NCBI RefSeq assembly: GCF_058153355.1
Contig: NZ_CM177019.1
Length of the DNA: 64,000 nucleotides
Strand: one strand, 5' to 3'
A model generated the notes under the pieces. It did not search any database, was not told where the DNA came from, and saw only the letters and a list, made by a program, of their open reading frames with translations. The position numbers were made by a program, and so were the translations under genes. Position 1 is the first letter of the stretch; each line of letters opens with the position of its first letter. Shown here piece by piece: positions 5,129 to 13,500 of this stretch.

Positions 5129-5209
5129 TGCTGTGGAAAAGCGTCGGCACTGCTTTTGTTGCAGCAAACTTGCGTTTTTTGTGAGGGTCACACTCTATAG
5201 CGGCAGTTT

Positions 5210-6115
5210 ATGGTACAAAGTATCAATCTTCTTCGAACCAGTGATACTCCCATGGCTTATAGCATCGATATCATCTCCTGTATTACCGAACGGTTTATGG
5301 CGTTAACCGCCACTGAAAAGCGTATCGCACAATTTATTCTTGATGACGTCTCTGCCGCAGTAGAGTTGCCAATTGCTGAGCTGGCACGGTTAACGCAAAC
5401 CAGTCAGGCGTCGGTGACGCGTTTTGCCCGTGCTCTGGGGTGCAAAGATGTCCGCGAGTTGAAAGTCAAACTGGCGCAGTCACTGGCTGTCGGGCAGCGG
5501 TTTATTCTCGATGTACCGGATCTTGACGGTGTTCAGGGGATCTACGAAGCGATTATTAGCGTGCTGGAAACGCATCGTCGTTCGCTGGATATGAATGCCA
5601 TCAGCCAGGCTGTAAGCTGGTTAAGTCAGGCGCGGCAAATTCTTGCGTTAGGAACTGGCGGCGGTTCCACTATCTGTTCACAGGAGATTCAGTACCGTTT
5701 ATTCCGTCTGGGGCTACCGGTGGTCAGTCAGAATGATGCCCTGATGATGAGAATGATGTGCTCGGCAGTGATGCCGCAGGATGTGGTGATTGTGCTGTCG
5801 CTGGGCGGTTATACACCGGAAATCATCGAAAGTGCGGCAATCGCCCGTCAGTATGGCGCGCGTGTTATTGCCATTACGCCAGCACAAACACCGCTGGCAG
5901 AACAGGTAGATCTGGTATTGCCGTTACTGGTTCAGGAGAGTGATTACATTTTTAAGCCCACCCCTTCCCGCTACGCGATGTTAGCCATGGTCGATGTACT
6001 GGCAACAGAACTGGCAATGGCAAATAAAGCGCAGGCGAAAGATCGCCTGCGGCGGATAAAACTGGTGTTAGACAGCCACCGTGGGGGCGCTAACCGCCAG
6101 CCACTTGGCGATTAG
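5210..6115 (+). CDS. RpiR/MurR-family transcriptional regulator (HTH_6 plus SIS sugar-phosphate-binding domain)
   Basis: HTH segment LARLTQTSQASVTRFARALGCKDVRELK; SIS-like ILALGTGGGS; start uncertain (Met at 5210, 5252 or 5297). Confidence 0.75.
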   Translation: MVQSINLLRTSDTPMAYSIDIISCITERFMALTATEKRIAQFILDDVSAAVELPIAELARLTQTSQASVTRFARALGCKDVRELKVKLAQSLAVGQRFILDVPDLDGVQGIYEAIISVLETHRRSLDMNAISQAVSWLSQARQILALGTGGGSTICSQEIQYRLFRLGLPVVSQNDALMMRMMCSAVMPQDVVIVLSLGGYTPEIIESAAIARQYGARVIAITPAQTPLAEQVDLVLPLLVQESDYIFKPTPSRYAMLAMVDVLATELAMANKAQAKDRLRRIKLVLDSHRGGANRQPLGD

Positions 6116-6124
6116 CATTGTCGG

Positions 6125-7594
6125 TTATGCTTCTTCAGGTTTGGTGATCACGACACTCTGGTTTTCACGCTCATTGGTGATAATAGCCAAAGCTTCTTCC
6201 CGGCTGACCTGACTTGCTGGCGTTACCAACGTCACCAGTACGCCAGCGACCAGGCTGCCCAGCACTGACGGAATACACGGGTTACCCCAGTAAGCCAGCC
6301 AGTCGGCATTCATCAGCACCACAATTGACATCACCATACCGCTCACTAACGCCGCCAGCGCGCCCTGCCAGTTAAAGCGTAGCCAGAAGCGACCGAGAAT
6401 CGAGCAGATAAACAGCCCGGACATCAGCATCGAAATCATTTTGGTAATGTAGCTGATGATGTCATTAGAGGTCAGAGCAAAGACCAGCGCCAGGCCAATA
6501 ACAAAGGTCAACATCCAGCGTGAGTAAGTAATGGCCTTGTCCTCCGGCGGCATTCTGCCGGTAATCATGGTGTAGACGTCGCGCATCATAATCGCCACCG
6601 CCGCGATGGCATCGGAGCTGGCGGAAGACATGGTGGCTGAAAGCCCGGCAATCAGCACCACCAGCCCAAGAATGGCAGGTAAGAAACTGGTCGCGAACAA
6701 GAAGGCGTAGTTGCTGTTTTCCAGATTTGGGTTCATGGTGAACGCCGCCATGCCGATAATGGCAGGCAGAATCGAGAAGAACAGATACAACACGCCAGTA
6801 ATAACAAATGAACGCCGTACAGAGGGAACGTCTTTTCCCGAGTAAATACGCTGGCGATAAGACGGTGTTGCCAGCACACCTACGCCAATAACCAGTGCCA
6901 GCGAAAGCGCAGGCAGCACGCCCATTTTATCAATCGCAAACAGGCTCATCGCTTTTGGGTCCATCGCCTGCTCAATCGCACTCCAGCCGCCAACGTGAAC
7001 AACGGCAAGAATAGCCATTAATATAAAGCCAAAGAACAGAATTAGGGCCTGAATAGTATCTGTCCACACTACCGCCGAATAACCGCCGATAATAACGTAA
7101 ATCGCAAAGGCCAAAGCGATAATTAATTTTGCTACAGTAAGATCAATACCCGTCGCCCAGGCAAGATACATACTGCCACCTAATATATGCGCTCCCAGCC
7201 AGCCAATAGAGGCAATAAATATCATCAGGCCGACAATATTTTTAATTAAATGGCTGCCGCCAGTATAATAAGATATTTCTTCACTCATGGTCATAAAACG
7301 TAATTTACGTACCGGTGCAAACAGCCACGCCACCAGTAATATACCTACGGCCCCACCGACGCCATAAAGCATTCCGGCCCAGCCATTGCTGTAGCCAAAG
7401 CCCACTGCGCCCATACTGGAACCCGTGCCAACCATCGTGGCAACGGTTGACCCCAGCGTCAGAAACAGCGGCAGCGAACGCCCGCCCAGCAGAAAATCTT
7501 CTCCGCTTTTCTGATTACGAGAAACAAACCAACCAAGCCAAATCATGGCGATGGCATAAATAATAAAGCCGACTAAAAAGATATGACTGTTCAT
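6125..7594 (-). CDS. Sodium:solute symporter (SSS) family transporter
   Basis: 489-aa polytopic membrane protein with SSS-type N-terminal region (GGRSLPLFLTLGSTVATMVGTGSSMG). Confidence 0.75.
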   Translation of the reverse strand: MNSHIFLVGFIIYAIAMIWLGWFVSRNQKSGEDFLLGGRSLPLFLTLGSTVATMVGTGSSMGAVGFGYSNGWAGMLYGVGGAVGILLVAWLFAPVRKLRFMTMSEEISYYTGGSHLIKNIVGLMIFIASIGWLGAHILGGSMYLAWATGIDLTVAKLIIALAFAIYVIIGGYSAVVWTDTIQALILFFGFILMAILAVVHVGGWSAIEQAMDPKAMSLFAIDKMGVLPALSLALVIGVGVLATPSYRQRIYSGKDVPSVRRSFVITGVLYLFFSILPAIIGMAAFTMNPNLENSNYAFLFATSFLPAILGLVVLIAGLSATMSSASSDAIAAVAIMMRDVYTMITGRMPPEDKAITYSRWMLTFVIGLALVFALTSNDIISYITKMISMLMSGLFICSILGRFWLRFNWQGALAALVSGMVMSIVVLMNADWLAYWGNPCIPSVLGSLVAGVLVTLVTPASQVSREEALAIITNERENQSVVITKPEEA

Positions 7595-7696
7595 AATTCA
7601 CATCCTGCCAGTAGAGAGAAATTAATGTAAGAGTTCCCGGAGTGCTGAATGTATTCAGCACTCAATTGCGGTCTGTTTTTTTAATTCTTAAATTTA

Positions 7697-8092
7697 TTAG
7701 CGGGTCGCGTTATAACAGGTCACATCGACTTCGACTTTACAATCGACAACCAGATCAGCCACACAACAAATACGTGCAGGCGGATTCTCGCCAAAAAATT
7801 CTCTGAATACTTTATTAAATGACTGGAAATAGCGGGCGTCGGTCAGGATCACTTTCACGTGAACCACATCCGCCAGGCTATAACCGGCTTCAGTCATGAT
7901 GTCGACACAGTTTTGGATCGCCAGTCGTGACTGTTCAACGATTCCGCCTTCTACCACTTCACCGTTTTTCATGGGTGTTTGCCCGGAGACGTACAGCCAG
8001 CCGCCCGCCTCAACCGCCCTGGCAAAAGGCAAATGCTGCCCGCCAGTGCCTGTTCCACCTTCCGTACCGTAACGTTTAATGCTCATATTCAC
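7697..8092 (-). CDS. RidA/YjgF-family reactive enamine/imine deaminase
   Basis: 131-aa protein with RidA-fold signatures; 3 bp downstream of the aminoacylase gene. Confidence 0.8.
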   Translation of the reverse strand: MNMSIKRYGTEGGTGTGGQHLPFARAVEAGGWLYVSGQTPMKNGEVVEGGIVEQSRLAIQNCVDIMTEAGYSLADVVHVKVILTDARYFQSFNKVFREFFGENPPARICCVADLVVDCKVEVDVTCYNATR

Positions 8093-8095
8093 TCC

Positions 8096-9547
8096 TTAAT
8101 GTGAGGTCTGCCGGCGCAGGAAGCGTCCCGCACGGCCTGTAATGTGTTTATCGCGACCATAGCTCATAACGCCGTTCACCATCACCGCCTCAATGCCATC
8201 TGCCGGGCGTTTGGGATCAGAAAAGCTGGCAACATCACGAATGGTTTGTGGATCGAACAACACCAGGTCCGCAAAATAGCCAACTTTCACCAGTCCACGC
8301 TGGGGCAGGCGAAAACGGCTGGCAGAAAGCCCGGTCATTTTGTGGATAGCCGTGGTCAGTGGGAATAAGCCTTCATCACGGCAATAGTGGCCCAGCACGC
8401 GAGGGAAGGCGCCCCATAAACGTGGATGCGGCATGGGATCATTGGGCAGGCCGTCAGAGCCAATCATACTGACCGGATAACTCAACACTCGGCGGACGTC
8501 GCGCTCGTCCATGTTGTAATAGATAGCCCCGGCAGGCATTAGCAGCTTCGCGGCCTCCAGCATACTCATCTGCCAGTCGATGGCGATTTGCGCCAGTGTT
8601 TTCCCGGCCTGCTGCGGATGTGTTTGTGACCAGGTGATCACAATATCGAATTCGTCGGTGACTTGTTTGAGATCCAGCGTTGAAGAGCTGGCTGAGTAAG
8701 GGTAGACATCGCAGCCAATTTCCTGGTGTTGACGCATTTGGTCAAAAAAAGCCAATGTTTCTTTTGTCCGCCCCCAGTTTTTCGCCCCGGCGCATTTATG
8801 GTGGGAAACCACGATAGGCACTTTGCCATGACGCCCAATACGAAACGCCTCATCCAGGGCATCGAGAATCGGTTCAAATTCAGAACGCAGATGGGTGGTA
8901 TAAACGCCCTTCTCACCGGCTAATTCTTCCGCCAGCGCCATGACTTCTTCGGTAGTCGCCTGAAATGCCGTTGCATAGGCCAGCCCGGAACTTAACCCCA
9001 GCGCCCCCTGACTCAACGCCAGACGTAAGTCGGCACGCATAGCGGCAATTTCATCCACCGTCGCCGGGCGAAACAGGTCGTCCATATGGTTATTACGCAG
9101 CGCCGTATGACCAATCAGCGTGCCAACGTTCAGTGACGGCCTGGCTGCTTCCACTGCCTGGGCATAGCTTTCAACGGTGGGATAAATAAAGTGCTCTGCT
9201 TCCCCCAACAGATTCATCGGGTCAGGAACTTCACCTTTCATTTTCGCCGACGCCGCACTAATCCCGCAGTTACCGACAATCACCGTAGTGATCCCCTGGC
9301 TGATCTTTGGCAGATATTCCGGGATGCGAATAACGTTGATATCGTCATGGGTATGAACGTCGATAAACCCTGGTGCCAGCACCCGCCCTTCCCCGTCAAT
9401 GACCTGCTGCGCCGTAACGTTAAGCGCAGGGGCAATATCGACAATCCGATCACCTGTTATTGCCACGTCACCGCGAAATTCAGGGCCGCCGCTACCGTCG
9501 ATAACGGTCACATTTTTGATTAACCAGTCAACCTGCATGTTCGTCAC
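8096..9547 (-). CDS. N-acyl-D-amino-acid deacylase (D-aminoacylase) family amidohydrolase
   Basis: 483 aa; metal-binding HTHDD motif near N-terminus, GNCG segment, length typical of D-aminoacylases. Confidence 0.75.
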   Translation of the reverse strand: MTNMQVDWLIKNVTVIDGSGGPEFRGDVAITGDRIVDIAPALNVTAQQVIDGEGRVLAPGFIDVHTHDDINVIRIPEYLPKISQGITTVIVGNCGISAASAKMKGEVPDPMNLLGEAEHFIYPTVESYAQAVEAARPSLNVGTLIGHTALRNNHMDDLFRPATVDEIAAMRADLRLALSQGALGLSSGLAYATAFQATTEEVMALAEELAGEKGVYTTHLRSEFEPILDALDEAFRIGRHGKVPIVVSHHKCAGAKNWGRTKETLAFFDQMRQHQEIGCDVYPYSASSSTLDLKQVTDEFDIVITWSQTHPQQAGKTLAQIAIDWQMSMLEAAKLLMPAGAIYYNMDERDVRRVLSYPVSMIGSDGLPNDPMPHPRLWGAFPRVLGHYCRDEGLFPLTTAIHKMTGLSASRFRLPQRGLVKVGYFADLVLFDPQTIRDVASFSDPKRPADGIEAVMVNGVMSYGRDKHITGRAGRFLRRQTSH

Positions 9548-9738
9548 TCCATTTCTGCAATGGTGACAAGTTAACCATTTACAAGGACGAAAAACAGTGG
9601 AAAACTACGCAAAACCCAGATGATTTTATGATACTTTTATTCATAAACTATAAGATAAATAAACTAAATATTTATATTTCATTTAGTTACAAATGATACC
9701 CATATCCGATACGGTGAAAAACTTAAAAGGTAAATGTT

Positions 9739-10959
9739 ATGAAATACCACTCAGAACCTCTGGTTCCCCATAAATCGGCCCTGATGCAAATGCCCGCAAA
9801 TCTCCTTGCCGAAGATGTCTGTTTACCTGCCGCGATCATTAAAAAGCAGGCCCTGGAGAACAACATTACGTGGATGCAACGCTACGCTGACGCGCGCGGC
9901 GTTTCACTGGCACCGCACGGTAAAACCACCATGACGCCGTGGATTTTTCAGGCGCAGCAGGCGGCAGGCGCCTGGGCAATAGGTGTCGGTAGCGCATGGC
10001 AGGCTGGTGCGGCAATGGCGAGCGGTATTCAGCGTGTGCTGATGGTTAACCAGTTGATCGGCAAGGCAAATATGCAGTTGATTGCCCGGTTGCAACGACA
10101 TTACCCGACGGTCGATTTTATCTGCTGTATCGACAGCATTGAGAACGCCCGCGCTTTGTCTGCCTTTTTTGCCAGTCAGCAACAGACACTGAACGTGATG
10201 ATTGAGCTGGGTGTTCCCGGCGGACGCTGTGGTTGCCGCTCAACGGATGCAGCACTGGCACTGGCTAAACAGGCGGCCCAATTACCAGGGCTACGTCTGC
10301 GCGGGCTTGAGTTATATGAAGGTGTTTTACACGGTGACGATCCACAACCGCAGGTAGAAGCTCTGCTGCGGGATGCCGCACAACTGGCCTGTGATATGGC
10401 AAGTTTGGTTGATGGCGAGTTTATTCTCACCGGAGCAGGCACGGTCTGGTATGACGTGGTGTGCAATATCTGGCTGGCGGCAGAAAAGCCTGATAACTGC
10501 CGCATTGTTATTCGCCCTGGCTGCTACATCACTCACGACACCGGGATCTACGACGCGGCACAACAACAGTTGCTCGCCCGTGATCCTGTGGCCTGTGATC
10601 TGGCAGGCGATCTCACATCTGCGCTGGAACTGGTCGCCATGGTGCAATCGGTGCCGGAAGCTGATCGTGCGGTGGTAAATTTTGGTAAGCGTGATTGCGC
10701 CTTCGACGCCGGACTGCCGCAACCAGTCGCCCACTATCGCAACGGCAAATCACTGGCATTTGATCCACAGGCGATTCGCAGTACAGGTATTATGGATCAG
10801 CACTGCATGTTGCAACTGTCAGCTAATAGCGACGTGCAAGTGGGGGATATTCTGGTGTTTGGCACATCGCATCCGTGCCTGACCTTCGACAAATGGAAAA
10901 CGTTGTTATTGGCTGATGACGACTACAACGTACTGGCGGAATTAGACACTCTCTTCTAA
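9739..10959 (+). CDS. Alanine-racemase-fold PLP enzyme of the DSD1 / D-threonine aldolase / D-serine dehydratase-like family
   Basis: 406 aa; PLP-lysine motif APHGKT near N-terminus; divergent from the aminoacylase operon across an AT-rich 190-bp spacer. Confidence 0.7.
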   Translation: MKYHSEPLVPHKSALMQMPANLLAEDVCLPAAIIKKQALENNITWMQRYADARGVSLAPHGKTTMTPWIFQAQQAAGAWAIGVGSAWQAGAAMASGIQRVLMVNQLIGKANMQLIARLQRHYPTVDFICCIDSIENARALSAFFASQQQTLNVMIELGVPGGRCGCRSTDAALALAKQAAQLPGLRLRGLELYEGVLHGDDPQPQVEALLRDAAQLACDMASLVDGEFILTGAGTVWYDVVCNIWLAAEKPDNCRIVIRPGCYITHDTGIYDAAQQQLLARDPVACDLAGDLTSALELVAMVQSVPEADRAVVNFGKRDCAFDAGLPQPVAHYRNGKSLAFDPQAIRSTGIMDQHCMLQLSANSDVQVGDILVFGTSHPCLTFDKWKTLLLADDDYNVLAELDTLF

Positions 10960-10964
10960 GAATA

Positions 10965-10996
10965 CCCCTTCGGTTAATTATCGAAGGGGCATTTTT
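10965..10996 (+). terminator. Rho-independent terminator after the DSD1-like gene
   Basis: ccccttcg / cgaagggg stem followed by CATTTTTATT. Confidence 0.7.
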
Positions 10997-11042
10997 ATTG
11001 TGATCTCAATCACATATCCACCCGACGAATAATTCTTGCCCA

Positions 11043-11070
11043 ACCGCTCACCGCCATTCCTGACCGCTTA
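11043..11070 (+). promoter_or_regulatory. Direct-repeat BtsR (YehT) response-regulator site upstream of btsT
   Basis: ACCGCTCA-N12-ACCGCTTA direct repeat about 280 bp upstream of btsT; matches the ACC(G/A)CT(C/T)A repeat motif I recall for the yjiY promoter. Confidence 0.55.
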
Positions 11071-11349
11071 CGTCCCAAATATAACCACTCAGTTATTTAC
11101 CTTACTTTACGCGCGCGTAACTCTGGCAACATCACTGCAGGATAGCGGTCAATTTACCTCCTCAAACGCAACGCAAACCTAGAACGGCTTCGGCCTATGA
11201 TTAACAAATTACTCTATGGATTTTGGTTTGCAGGAAGGCAGCAAGTGAGTGAATCCCCGGGAGCTTACAAAAGTAAGTGACAGGGGTGAACGAACGCAGC
11301 TGCCGCACCTGTAAGCCAAAAGACGACGAGTAAAATGCCAGGTTTTACT

Positions 11350-13500
11350 ATGGATACGAAAAAACTATTCAAGCACATACCCTGGGTGATTCTTGGAATC
11401 ATCGGTGCATTCTGCCTCGCGGTAGTTGCATTACGTCGGGGGGAGCACGTCAGCGCCCTGTGGATCGTGGTCGCCTCTGTGTCGGTGTATCTGGTGGCTT
11501 ATCGCTACTACAGTTTGTACATCGCCCAGAAAGTGATGAAACTCGACCCCACGCGCGCGACGCCTGCGGTTATTAACAATGACGGTCTGAACTATGTTCC
11601 GACCAACCGTTACGTGTTGTTTGGTCACCACTTCGCCGCTATCGCCGGTGCTGGTCCGCTGGTTGGTCCGGTTCTCGCCGCGCAGATGGGCTACCTGCCT
11701 GGCACGCTGTGGTTGCTGGCGGGGGTAGTGCTGGCCGGTGCGGTTCAGGACTTTATGGTGCTGTTTATCTCCTCTCGCCGTAACGGCGCATCTCTCGGTG
11801 AGATGATCAAAGAAGAGATGGGACCAGTACCGGGGACTATCGCGCTGTTTGGCTGTTTCTTAATCATGATCATCATCCTCGCCGTTCTGGCGCTGATTGT
11901 GGTTAAAGCCCTGGCCGAAAGTCCGTGGGGTGTCTTCACCGTTTGCTCAACCGTACCAATTGCGCTGTTTATGGGTATCTACATGCGCTTTATCCGTCCG
12001 GGGCGTGTAGGTGAAGTCTCTGTTATTGGTATCGTGCTGCTGGTTGCCTCTATCTACTTCGGTGGTGTGATTGCTCACGATCCGTACTGGGGTCCGGCAC
12101 TGACCTTTAAAGACACCACCATTACCTTCGCACTGATTGGCTATGCGTTTGTTTCCGCACTGCTGCCGGTGTGGCTGATCCTCGCACCGCGCGACTATCT
12201 GGCAACCTTCCTGAAAATCGGCGTTATCGTCGGCCTGGCGCTGGGTATCGTGGTGCTGAACCCGGAACTGAAAATGCCTGCGATGACCCAGTACATTGAC
12301 GGTACTGGCCCGCTGTGGAAAGGCGCTCTGTTCCCGTTCCTGTTCATCACCATCGCCTGTGGTGCGGTATCTGGCTTCCACGCGCTAATCTCTTCCGGTA
12401 CGACGCCGAAACTGCTGGCTAACGAAACCGACGCGCGTTTCATCGGCTACGGTGCAATGCTGATGGAGTCCTTCGTGGCGATTATGGCGCTGGTTGCTGC
12501 GTCCATCATCGAACCGGGTCTTTACTTCGCGATGAATACTCCGCCTGCGGGCCTTGGCATCACCATGCCTAACCTGCATGAGATGGGTGGCGAGAACGCG
12601 CCGATCATCATGGCACAACTGAAAGACGTTACCGCACACGCGGCAGCGACCGTCAGCTCCTGGGGCTTCGTGATTTCGCCAGAGCAGATCCTGCAAACCG
12701 CGAAAGACATTGGTGAGCCTTCTGTCCTGAACCGTGCAGGTGGTGCGCCGACGCTGGCGGTAGGTATCGCTCACGTGTTCCACAAAGTGCTGCCGATGGC
12801 TGACATGGGCTTCTGGTATCACTTCGGTATTCTGTTCGAAGCCCTGTTCATCCTGACCGCGCTGGATGCGGGTACCCGTTCTGGCCGCTTTATGCTGCAG
12901 GACCTGCTGGGTAACTTCATCCCGTTCCTGAAAAAAACCGACTCTCTGGTTGCTGGTATCATCGGTACTGCGGGCTGTGTGGGTCTGTGGGGCTACCTGC
13001 TGTATCAGGGCGTGGTCGATCCGCTGGGCGGCGTTAAGAGCCTGTGGCCGCTGTTCGGTATCTCCAACCAGATGCTGGCAGCCGTGGCGCTGGTACTGGG
13101 CACCGTTGTGCTGATTAAGATGAAACGCACCCAATACATCTGGGTAACTGTTGTTCCGGCTGTATGGCTGCTTATCTGCACCACCTGGGCGCTGGGCCTG
13201 AAACTGTTCAGCACCAACCCGCAGATGGAAGGCTTCTTCTACATGGCAAGCCAGTACAAAGAGAAGATTGCTAACGGTACTGACCTGACGGCACAGCAGA
13301 TTGCCAACATGAACCACATCGTTGTGAACAACTACACCAACGCAGGCCTGAGTATTCTGTTCCTGATTGTGGTGTACAGCATCATCTTCTACGGTTTCAA
13401 AACCTGGCTGAAGGTGCGTAACAGCGACAAACGTACTGACAAAGAAACACCGTACGTTCCAATCCCGGAAGGCGGCGTGAAGATCTCTTCGCACCACTAA
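11350..13500 (+). CDS. btsT: CstA-family pyruvate/H+ symporter
   Basis: 716 aa from MDTKKLFKHIPWVILG; CstA-family membrane protein; followed by yjiX and yjiA. Confidence 0.95.
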   Translation: MDTKKLFKHIPWVILGIIGAFCLAVVALRRGEHVSALWIVVASVSVYLVAYRYYSLYIAQKVMKLDPTRATPAVINNDGLNYVPTNRYVLFGHHFAAIAGAGPLVGPVLAAQMGYLPGTLWLLAGVVLAGAVQDFMVLFISSRRNGASLGEMIKEEMGPVPGTIALFGCFLIMIIILAVLALIVVKALAESPWGVFTVCSTVPIALFMGIYMRFIRPGRVGEVSVIGIVLLVASIYFGGVIAHDPYWGPALTFKDTTITFALIGYAFVSALLPVWLILAPRDYLATFLKIGVIVGLALGIVVLNPELKMPAMTQYIDGTGPLWKGALFPFLFITIACGAVSGFHALISSGTTPKLLANETDARFIGYGAMLMESFVAIMALVAASIIEPGLYFAMNTPPAGLGITMPNLHEMGGENAPIIMAQLKDVTAHAAATVSSWGFVISPEQILQTAKDIGEPSVLNRAGGAPTLAVGIAHVFHKVLPMADMGFWYHFGILFEALFILTALDAGTRSGRFMLQDLLGNFIPFLKKTDSLVAGIIGTAGCVGLWGYLLYQGVVDPLGGVKSLWPLFGISNQMLAAVALVLGTVVLIKMKRTQYIWVTVVPAVWLLICTTWALGLKLFSTNPQMEGFFYMASQYKEKIANGTDLTAQQIANMNHIVVNNYTNAGLSILFLIVVYSIIFYGFKTWLKVRNSDKRTDKETPYVPIPEGGVKISSHH

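Follow-up and report, generated by a model that had tools for sequence, protein, structure and literature searches.

Three BtsR-type octamers and a predicted CRP site upstream of btsT, beside a replaceable islet

The stretch of DNA analysed here, referred to as the window (64,000 nucleotides), carries upstream of the pyruvate/H+ symporter gene btsT (yjiY) an array of three same-strand octamers which, judged by its sequence, is the orthologue of the operator already known from K-12. The segment at about 10999-11132 very probably represents a conserved btsT control module that comprises a CRP site, a spacer with a fixed length of 28 bp, the three octamers and an activator-dependent promoter, with BtsR acting on the repeats and CRP being required in addition. 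BtsS is known to sense pyruvate and BtsR to activate btsT, for which cAMP-CRP is also needed (PMC7730263, PMC10653868); the published work on BtsSR-dependent induction concerns the promoters of K-12 and Salmonella. What the window holds is thus known biology, in a register slightly shifted from that of the initial annotation, which had placed a BtsR site of two repeats at 11043-11070 and had regarded it as the right-hand boundary of an inserted island.

Repeat array upstream of btsT

The three octamers, the starts of which lie 20 and 21 bp apart, and the spacers between them are arranged as follows:

11043-11050, + strand, distal octamer ACCGCTCA, which fits ACC[GA]CT[CT]A and was the first half-site of the initial annotation
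11051-11062, + strand, first inter-octamer spacer CCGCCATTCCTG, 12 nt
11063-11070, + strand, middle octamer ACCGCTTA, which was the second half-site of the initial annotation and corresponds to repeat 1 of the published site in K-12
11071-11083, second inter-octamer spacer, 13 nt
11084-11091, + strand, promoter-proximal octamer ACCACTCA, which corresponds to repeat 2 of the published site and has the same sequence in K-12

The pair ACCGCTCA-N12-ACCGCTTA is present on the + strand at 11043-11070 as had been described, and so are its distances to the neighbouring features: 279 nt lie between 11070 and the btsT ATG at 11350 (given earlier as about 280 bp), and about 45 nt separate 11043 from a terminator, likewise as described, the hairpin of which occupies 10965-10989 and the T-rich tail of which extends to about 10999. 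The description with two repeats is incomplete, however, in that it overlooked the third copy, ACCACTCA at 11084-11091, which follows after another 13 nt. Taken singly, matches to ACC[GA]CT[CT]A are frequent (the window has 12, and about 8 are expected), whereas three copies within 60 bp arose in none of 300 shuffles and two copies in nine of them.

Relation to the published K-12 site

In the abstract of their 2012 study, Kraxenberger et al. reportedly described binding of YehT (BtsR) to two ACC[G/A]CT[C/T]A direct repeats with a 13-bp spacer in the yjiY promoter. A full-text literature search for the wording of this YehT/BtsR motif gave no statement of it, and the only site sequence found in print is that of an oligo used for SPR. 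This K-12 oligo, named 'yjiY YehT bs' and published by the same laboratory, reads CCTTT GCCGCTCA ACCGCAAAACTG ACCGCTTA CATCCCTAAAATA ACCACTCA GTTA (PMC4847170). Its spacers are N12 after GCCGCTCA and N13 between ACCGCTTA and ACCACTCA, and only the latter two octamers, 13 bp apart, fit the motif, the two degenerate positions of which are exactly those where ACCGCTTA and ACCACTCA differ. Since both the degenerate positions and the spacer match, the wording of the motif agrees with the printed oligo.

At the place of the distal octamer, K-12 and E. albertii both have GCCGCTCA, the first base of which (G) departs from the motif. The segment 11063-11091 of the window aligns with the published K-12 site, with the motif of which the oligo sequence is consistent. 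Both members of this pair (11063-11070 and 11084-11091) satisfy ACC[G/A]CT[C/T]A and are separated by the 13-nt spacer, whereas the pair at 11043-11070 satisfies the motif in the window but has a spacer of 12 nt and hence lacks the 13-bp spacing. K-12 and the window are 92% identical over 11044-11207, after which btsT follows, and the repeats are orthologous by position; this positional orthology holds in an alignment of 8 E. coli contexts, among which the middle octamer is invariant.

Because GCCGCTCA lies outside the motif and the pair with the 13-bp spacer aligns at 11063-11091, the second octamer of the initial annotation corresponds to the first octamer of the published site. The assignment to BtsR stands insofar as the octamer consensus is that of BtsR/YehT and the location is the btsT (yjiY) control region, but the pair had been drawn one repeat too far upstream, with N12 rather than N13. 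The alignment with the K-12 btsT promoter, which had been proposed as a check, recovers an orthologous region, although one in which the first K-12 octamer departs from the motif.

The window shares with the K-12 yjiY site identical ACCGCTTA and ACCACTCA octamers, the 13-bp spacer and the same downstream promoter sequence. It differs from K-12 in the distal copy, which is a perfect ACCGCTCA in the window and GCCGCTCA in K-12, in the two spacers that follow the CRP site and the distal octamer, which represent a different allele, in the presence of a 126-nt ERIC element between the promoter region and the ATG, and in the upstream neighbour, which is tsr in K-12 and a D-amino-acid islet in the window.

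Conservation of the array in Enterobacterales

The btsT locus was compared using one genome per species. Of the 80 loci obtained, 78 had sufficient upstream DNA, and they range over the Enterobacterales, with Escherichia, Salmonella and Citrobacter at one end and Erwinia, Pantoea and Rahnella at the other. A same-strand three-octamer array lies upstream of btsT in all 78 species and scores 21-24 of 24 consensus positions, while shuffled upstream regions reach 14-19 of 24 on the same consensus. The two spacers measure (12,12) in 53 species, (12,13) in 20, (13,13) in four and (13,12) in one, so that the spacing from distal to middle octamer is N12 in 73 of the 78. A perfect fit to the motif is found in 54/78 species for the distal octamer, 69/78 for the middle and 56/78 for the proximal one. 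The ACC.CT columns carry about 1.6-2.0 bits over all three octamers (1.8-2.0 bits in the distal one), and the spacer columns stay below 1 bit except for three with 1.0-1.5 bits: in either spacer the 13th column, which is padded with gaps, and in the second spacer one further column. As unconstrained sequence would be randomised at such evolutionary depth, the distal octamer, judged from this alignment, is under constraint comparable to that on the proximal repeat and is not a chance occurrence. The array is the same in Salmonella, where btsT has been reported to depend on BtsSR (PMC9504724). A possible fourth copy in register appears to be present in a Citrobacter, in Phytobacter massiliensis and in Pantoea coffeiphila (loci L031, L056 and L078).

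Within E. coli, the upstream region occurs in several allelic forms. The 58-mer of the window type, with its perfect ACCGCTCA, was found in 2254 of 5426 complete genomes, and the K-12-type allele with GCCGCTCA in 2632 of the 5426; identity reaches at least 99% in 2020 of these, lies at 90-99% in 23 and at 80-90% in the remaining 589, which appear to be mosaics. O157 has a third version of the upstream sequence, which carries ACCGCTCA.

Predicted CRP site, variable spacer and probable core promoter

The repeats are flanked by the following elements:

10999-11014, CRP-type palindrome TGTGATCTCAATCACA, with which the btsT control module begins on its upstream side
11015-11042, variable 28-bp spacer that separates the CRP site from the repeats, fixed in length and not in sequence
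11094-11132, + strand, conserved core-promoter stretch ATTTACC...ACTTTACGCGCGCG...TCTGGCAACAT, from the conservation profile

The palindrome at 10999-11014 is the only perfect match to TGTGA-N6-TCACA in the window, and a CRP-type site is present in all 8 aligned E. coli contexts, whatever sits upstream of it. Outside Escherichia, 73 of 75 species have their best CRP-like 16-mer with its start 43-45 bp ahead of the first octamer, 64 of them at exactly 44 bp, and these sites match 8-10 of the 10 half-site bases as compared to 4-6 for the background. A crp mutation abolishes btsT expression (PMC7730263), and CRP dependence has also been reported elsewhere (PMC10653868, PMC5431176). On the strength of its conserved position, 10999-11014 is a predicted CRP site that forms part of the btsT module. 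The 28 bp between this site and the repeats occur in E. coli in three unrelated versions of equal length (K-12, window and O157 types), and across genera their columns mostly hold less than 0.5 bit, with a maximum of 0.7, except for the base directly before the first octamer (1.2 bits).

Within the conserved core-promoter stretch, TCTGg together with CAACAT at 11122-11132 would form an extended -10 element. Counted from the +1 that such an element implies, the octamers may be centred near -51, -72 and -92, with the CRP site near -132, positions that are given with low confidence. A sigma-54 promoter was considered for TGGCAACATCACTGCA (TGGCA-N8-TGCA) at 11124-11139, which has the right -24/-12 spacing, and was rejected, since K-12 has ACA at -12 and the spacing differs in other genera; furthermore, LytTR regulators are not known to be sigma-54 activators. 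The match at 11124-11139 is probably due to chance, and the conserved TCTGGCAnnAT would suit an extended -10 better than a sigma-54 promoter. Just downstream, at 11135-11148, lies a short hairpin, CUGC-AGGAUA-GCGG, the loop of which contains a GGA that resembles a CsrA site and is not conserved outside Escherichia.

The inserted islet and its right junction

Pfam matches and the annotation of NZ_CP074749 identify the five genes of an islet inserted between tsr and the module:

about 5131-10998, inserted islet, five genes
5210-6115, + strand, MurR/RpiR regulator
6125-7594, - strand, sodium:solute symporter
7697-8092, - strand, RidA protein
8096-9547, - strand, N-acyl-D-amino-acid deacylase-type amidohydrolase
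9739-10959, + strand, D-serine-dehydratase-like PLP deaminase
10965-10999, + strand, terminator-like hairpin (10965-10989) and T tract, which ends the deaminase gene and is the last feature of the islet

The hairpin of the terminator has a 10-pair stem with six G-C pairs and a 5-nt loop, followed by the tail CATTTTTATT. Of 5426 E. coli genomes, 194 carry the islet, which takes the place of about 90 bp between tsr and btsT in K-12. The two genes are divergent and directly adjacent in Salmonella, Citrobacter, Kosakonia, Pluralibacter and others, for which reason the empty state of the spacer is taken as ancestral. Judged from the sequences compared, the tsr-btsT spacer is a hot spot of replacement with at least five states:

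empty (K-12, URN1)
hpa cluster (O121, EC21Z-048)
D-amino-acid islet (window, R32_14_1F)
FAD-oxidoreductase/2Fe-2S cluster (E308)
single hypothetical ORF (O157)

The alternative occupants of this slot, that is the hpa cluster, the FAD-oxidoreductase/2Fe-2S cluster, the O157 ORF and the D-amino-acid islet, all have their right ends just upstream of the CRP site. Since the module reaches to 10999 and every occupant ends just before the CRP site, the right junction of the islet is placed at about 10998/10999. The site has accordingly been kept beside the inserted gene cluster, as the initial annotation had stated, but the repeat does not mark the right-hand island boundary: the terminator and the repeats are separated by the CRP site at 10999-11014, and the boundary should have been drawn about 45 bp further upstream. 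Megablast shows contiguous homology to K-12 from 11044 onwards, and the boundary-like look of the repeat results from the lack of sequence conservation in the 28-bp spacer.

The reading as a classical mobile genomic island was rejected, since the islet has no integrase, no flanking repeats and no deviation in G+C content. The Pfam search for mobility genes found no integrase or transposase within the islet, all five genes of which are metabolic or regulatory; a search for flanking repeats around it found none, and its G+C content of 0.46-0.55 is similar to that of the flanks. The islet is best seen as a replaceable cassette, one of several that are exchanged by homologous recombination via the tsr and btsT flanks. 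Over the region tested, no complete E. coli genome is identical to the window, the best match being 99.3% for the islet and about 98% for the promoter region.

The hpa cluster (O121, EC21Z-048; at about 11985-12020 of locus L002) and the islet end with the same terminator stem, CCCCTTC...GAAGGGG, followed by a T tract, and have different loops. This common stem suggests a shared right-flank haplotype and swapping of cassettes. A further observation concerns contig CACSKA010000015.1 of 'Chryseobacterium sp. 18061' (locus L068, positions 1-2000), which encodes an enterobacterial BtsT (93% amino acid identity) and upstream of it homologues of the islet deaminase (80% aa) and of the D-aminoacylase (78% aa). 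The contig is probably mislabelled or a contaminant; it shows that islet and btsT are also adjacent outside Escherichia.

ERIC-type element between the promoter region and btsT

Downstream of the promoter region follow a repeat element and the btsT gene itself:

11209-11334, + strand, ERIC/IRU-type imperfect palindromic repeat, 126 nt, between the promoter region and the btsT ATG
11350-13500, + strand, btsT (yjiY), pyruvate/H+ symporter, 716 aa, annotated as btsT in homologous E. coli records

The element occurs once in the window and ends 15 nt before the ATG at 11350. E. coli genomes carry it at 10 places (median). It is predicted to fold into a long imperfect hairpin (-61.7 kcal/mol, z = -7.0), and it agrees with each of the two ERIC primer sequences in 20 of 22 bases. 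Because it is a dispersed repeat, forms a long hairpin and matches both primers, 11209-11334 is assigned to the ERIC/IRU elements, which it resembles in its length (about 127 bp in that family), its imperfect palindrome, its many genomic copies and its location outside coding sequence, none of which is unusual here. A search of 10900-11450 against Rfam gave only sub-threshold matches, the one for the ERIC-type element being to V_AS5.

At btsT, the element is present in 2060 of 5426 genomes (38%), including the strains with the hpa cluster, and is missing in K-12, where the site is empty, and in R32_14_1F, E308, URN1 and O157. R32_14_1F carries the same islet as the window, yet lacks the ERIC-type element. 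The distance from the end of the proximal octamer to the ATG is 135 nt in K-12 as compared to 258 nt in the window, and the distance of 280 bp between the repeats of the initial annotation and the ATG is therefore a consequence of the 126-nt insertion. The pyruvate-responsive control region had been described as intact, which holds for the module upstream of the promoter, where every part is present, but not for the stretch between the promoter region and the ATG, which is interrupted by the insertion. From its position, the ERIC element presumably sits in the 5' leader of btsT. Post-transcriptional control of btsT by CsrA has been reported (PMC7730263, PMC10653868, PMC5431176).

The start of btsT in annotated homologues corresponds to the ATG at 11350 (MDTKK), whereas the mechanically derived open reading frame begins at an in-frame ATG at 11335, next to the 3' end of the ERIC element. 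The BtsT protein is 100% identical to that of two Escherichia sp. representatives, the DNA of which is 97-98% identical. In K-12, btsS and btsR lie elsewhere on the chromosome from btsT.

Alternative readings of the repeats

The array could be read more narrowly in two ways. Function is unlikely to be limited to the two published repeats at 11063-11091, with the distal octamer being no more than a relic or a near-copy arisen by chance. Such a reading would accord with the published description, which gives two repeats, and with K-12, in which a G as the first base of the distal copy is tolerated, an allele carried by about half of the E. coli genomes. Yet a relic would hardly be retained at N12 in 73/78 species and fit the motif perfectly in 54/78, a proportion similar to the 56/78 of the proximal octamer, next to spacer columns that are largely randomised, and the binding-site oligo of the original authors covers all three copies (PMC4847170). 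Still somewhat less probable is that the upstream pair ACCGCTCA-N12-ACCGCTTA at 11043-11070 itself constitutes the BtsR operator and the island boundary, even if both of its octamers fit the consensus, N12 is the commonest spacing of adjacent octamers across genera and the contiguous stretch that megablast aligns with K-12 begins at 11044. In K-12 the first octamer of that pair, GCCGCTCA, falls outside the published motif, the published 13-bp spacer is found only in the pair at 11063-11091, and the proximal octamer, which this pair leaves out, is conserved as well as the distal one. As to the boundary, the upstream CRP site belongs to the module by its fixed offset of 44 bp, and all alternative islets end before it.

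A different question is whether the repeats are bound by another factor, such as the paralogous LytTR regulator YpdB/PyrR. The two systems have been reported to cross-regulate btsT and yhjX (PMC7730263, PMC10653868); however, the recognition repeats of YpdB are GGCATTTCAT, and a PyjiY fragment with the octamers discussed here served as non-binding control DNA for YpdB in SPR, which makes this explanation highly improbable. The reading preferred here is that of a three-octamer BtsR array preceded by a CRP site, and it builds on sequences, positions, orthology with K-12, conservation and junctions that were observed directly.

Proposed mechanism and comparison with other regulators

In the proposed sequence of events, external pyruvate would be sensed by BtsS, upon which BtsR, a response regulator of the LytTR type, would occupy the repeats with one LytTR domain per octamer. 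Since their starts are 20-21 bp apart, all three octamers would be located on one face of the DNA, two helical turns from each other. The middle and proximal repeats (11063-11091) correspond to the site defined by experiment in K-12. The distal repeat at 11043-11050 would represent a conserved third position, the predicted occupancy of which probably adds cooperative binding, and cAMP-CRP, bound at a fixed distance upstream, would be required as well. The islet was placed between tsr and the module without removal of any part of the latter, and a later or independent insertion of the ERIC element lengthened the region from promoter to ATG. The distal repeat may be dispensable, as K-12 has working BtsR activation despite the mismatched G at position 1. 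A tentative extension is that the natural BtsR operator is the three-repeat array and that two natural variants, the K-12-type distal G of about half the E. coli genomes and the ERIC insertion of 38%, might tune the strength or timing of btsT induction between lineages.

In practical terms, the analysis provides a precise map of the btsT control region for this strain, with the islet junction placed at the CRP site, and otherwise matters little. The architecture of three repeats plus CRP site and the weakened distal copy in K-12 would, if undescribed, amount to a modest refinement rather than to a new kind of system, while the conservation of the distal repeat and of the CRP offset in Enterobacterales offers a hypothesis on cooperative binding and on strain variation in pyruvate scavenging.

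Operators of other LytTR regulators, including those of YpdB at PyhjX, AgrA, ComE, PlnC/D, VirR and AlgR, resemble the btsT array in consisting of direct repeats of about 8-11 bp, 11-13 bp apart, just upstream of a promoter (PMC4847170). They differ from it in that they usually comprise a pair, as opposed to the three repeats at btsT, and in their unrelated recognition sequence. AlgR at algD also has three sites, but these are dispersed (PMC4064291). The promoter of cstA, which encodes a paralogous pyruvate transporter, likewise has a far-upstream CRP site, and both cstA and btsT are CRP-dependent and controlled by CsrA (PMC7730263); in contrast to btsT, the cstA promoter has no BtsR repeats and is independent of BtsSR.
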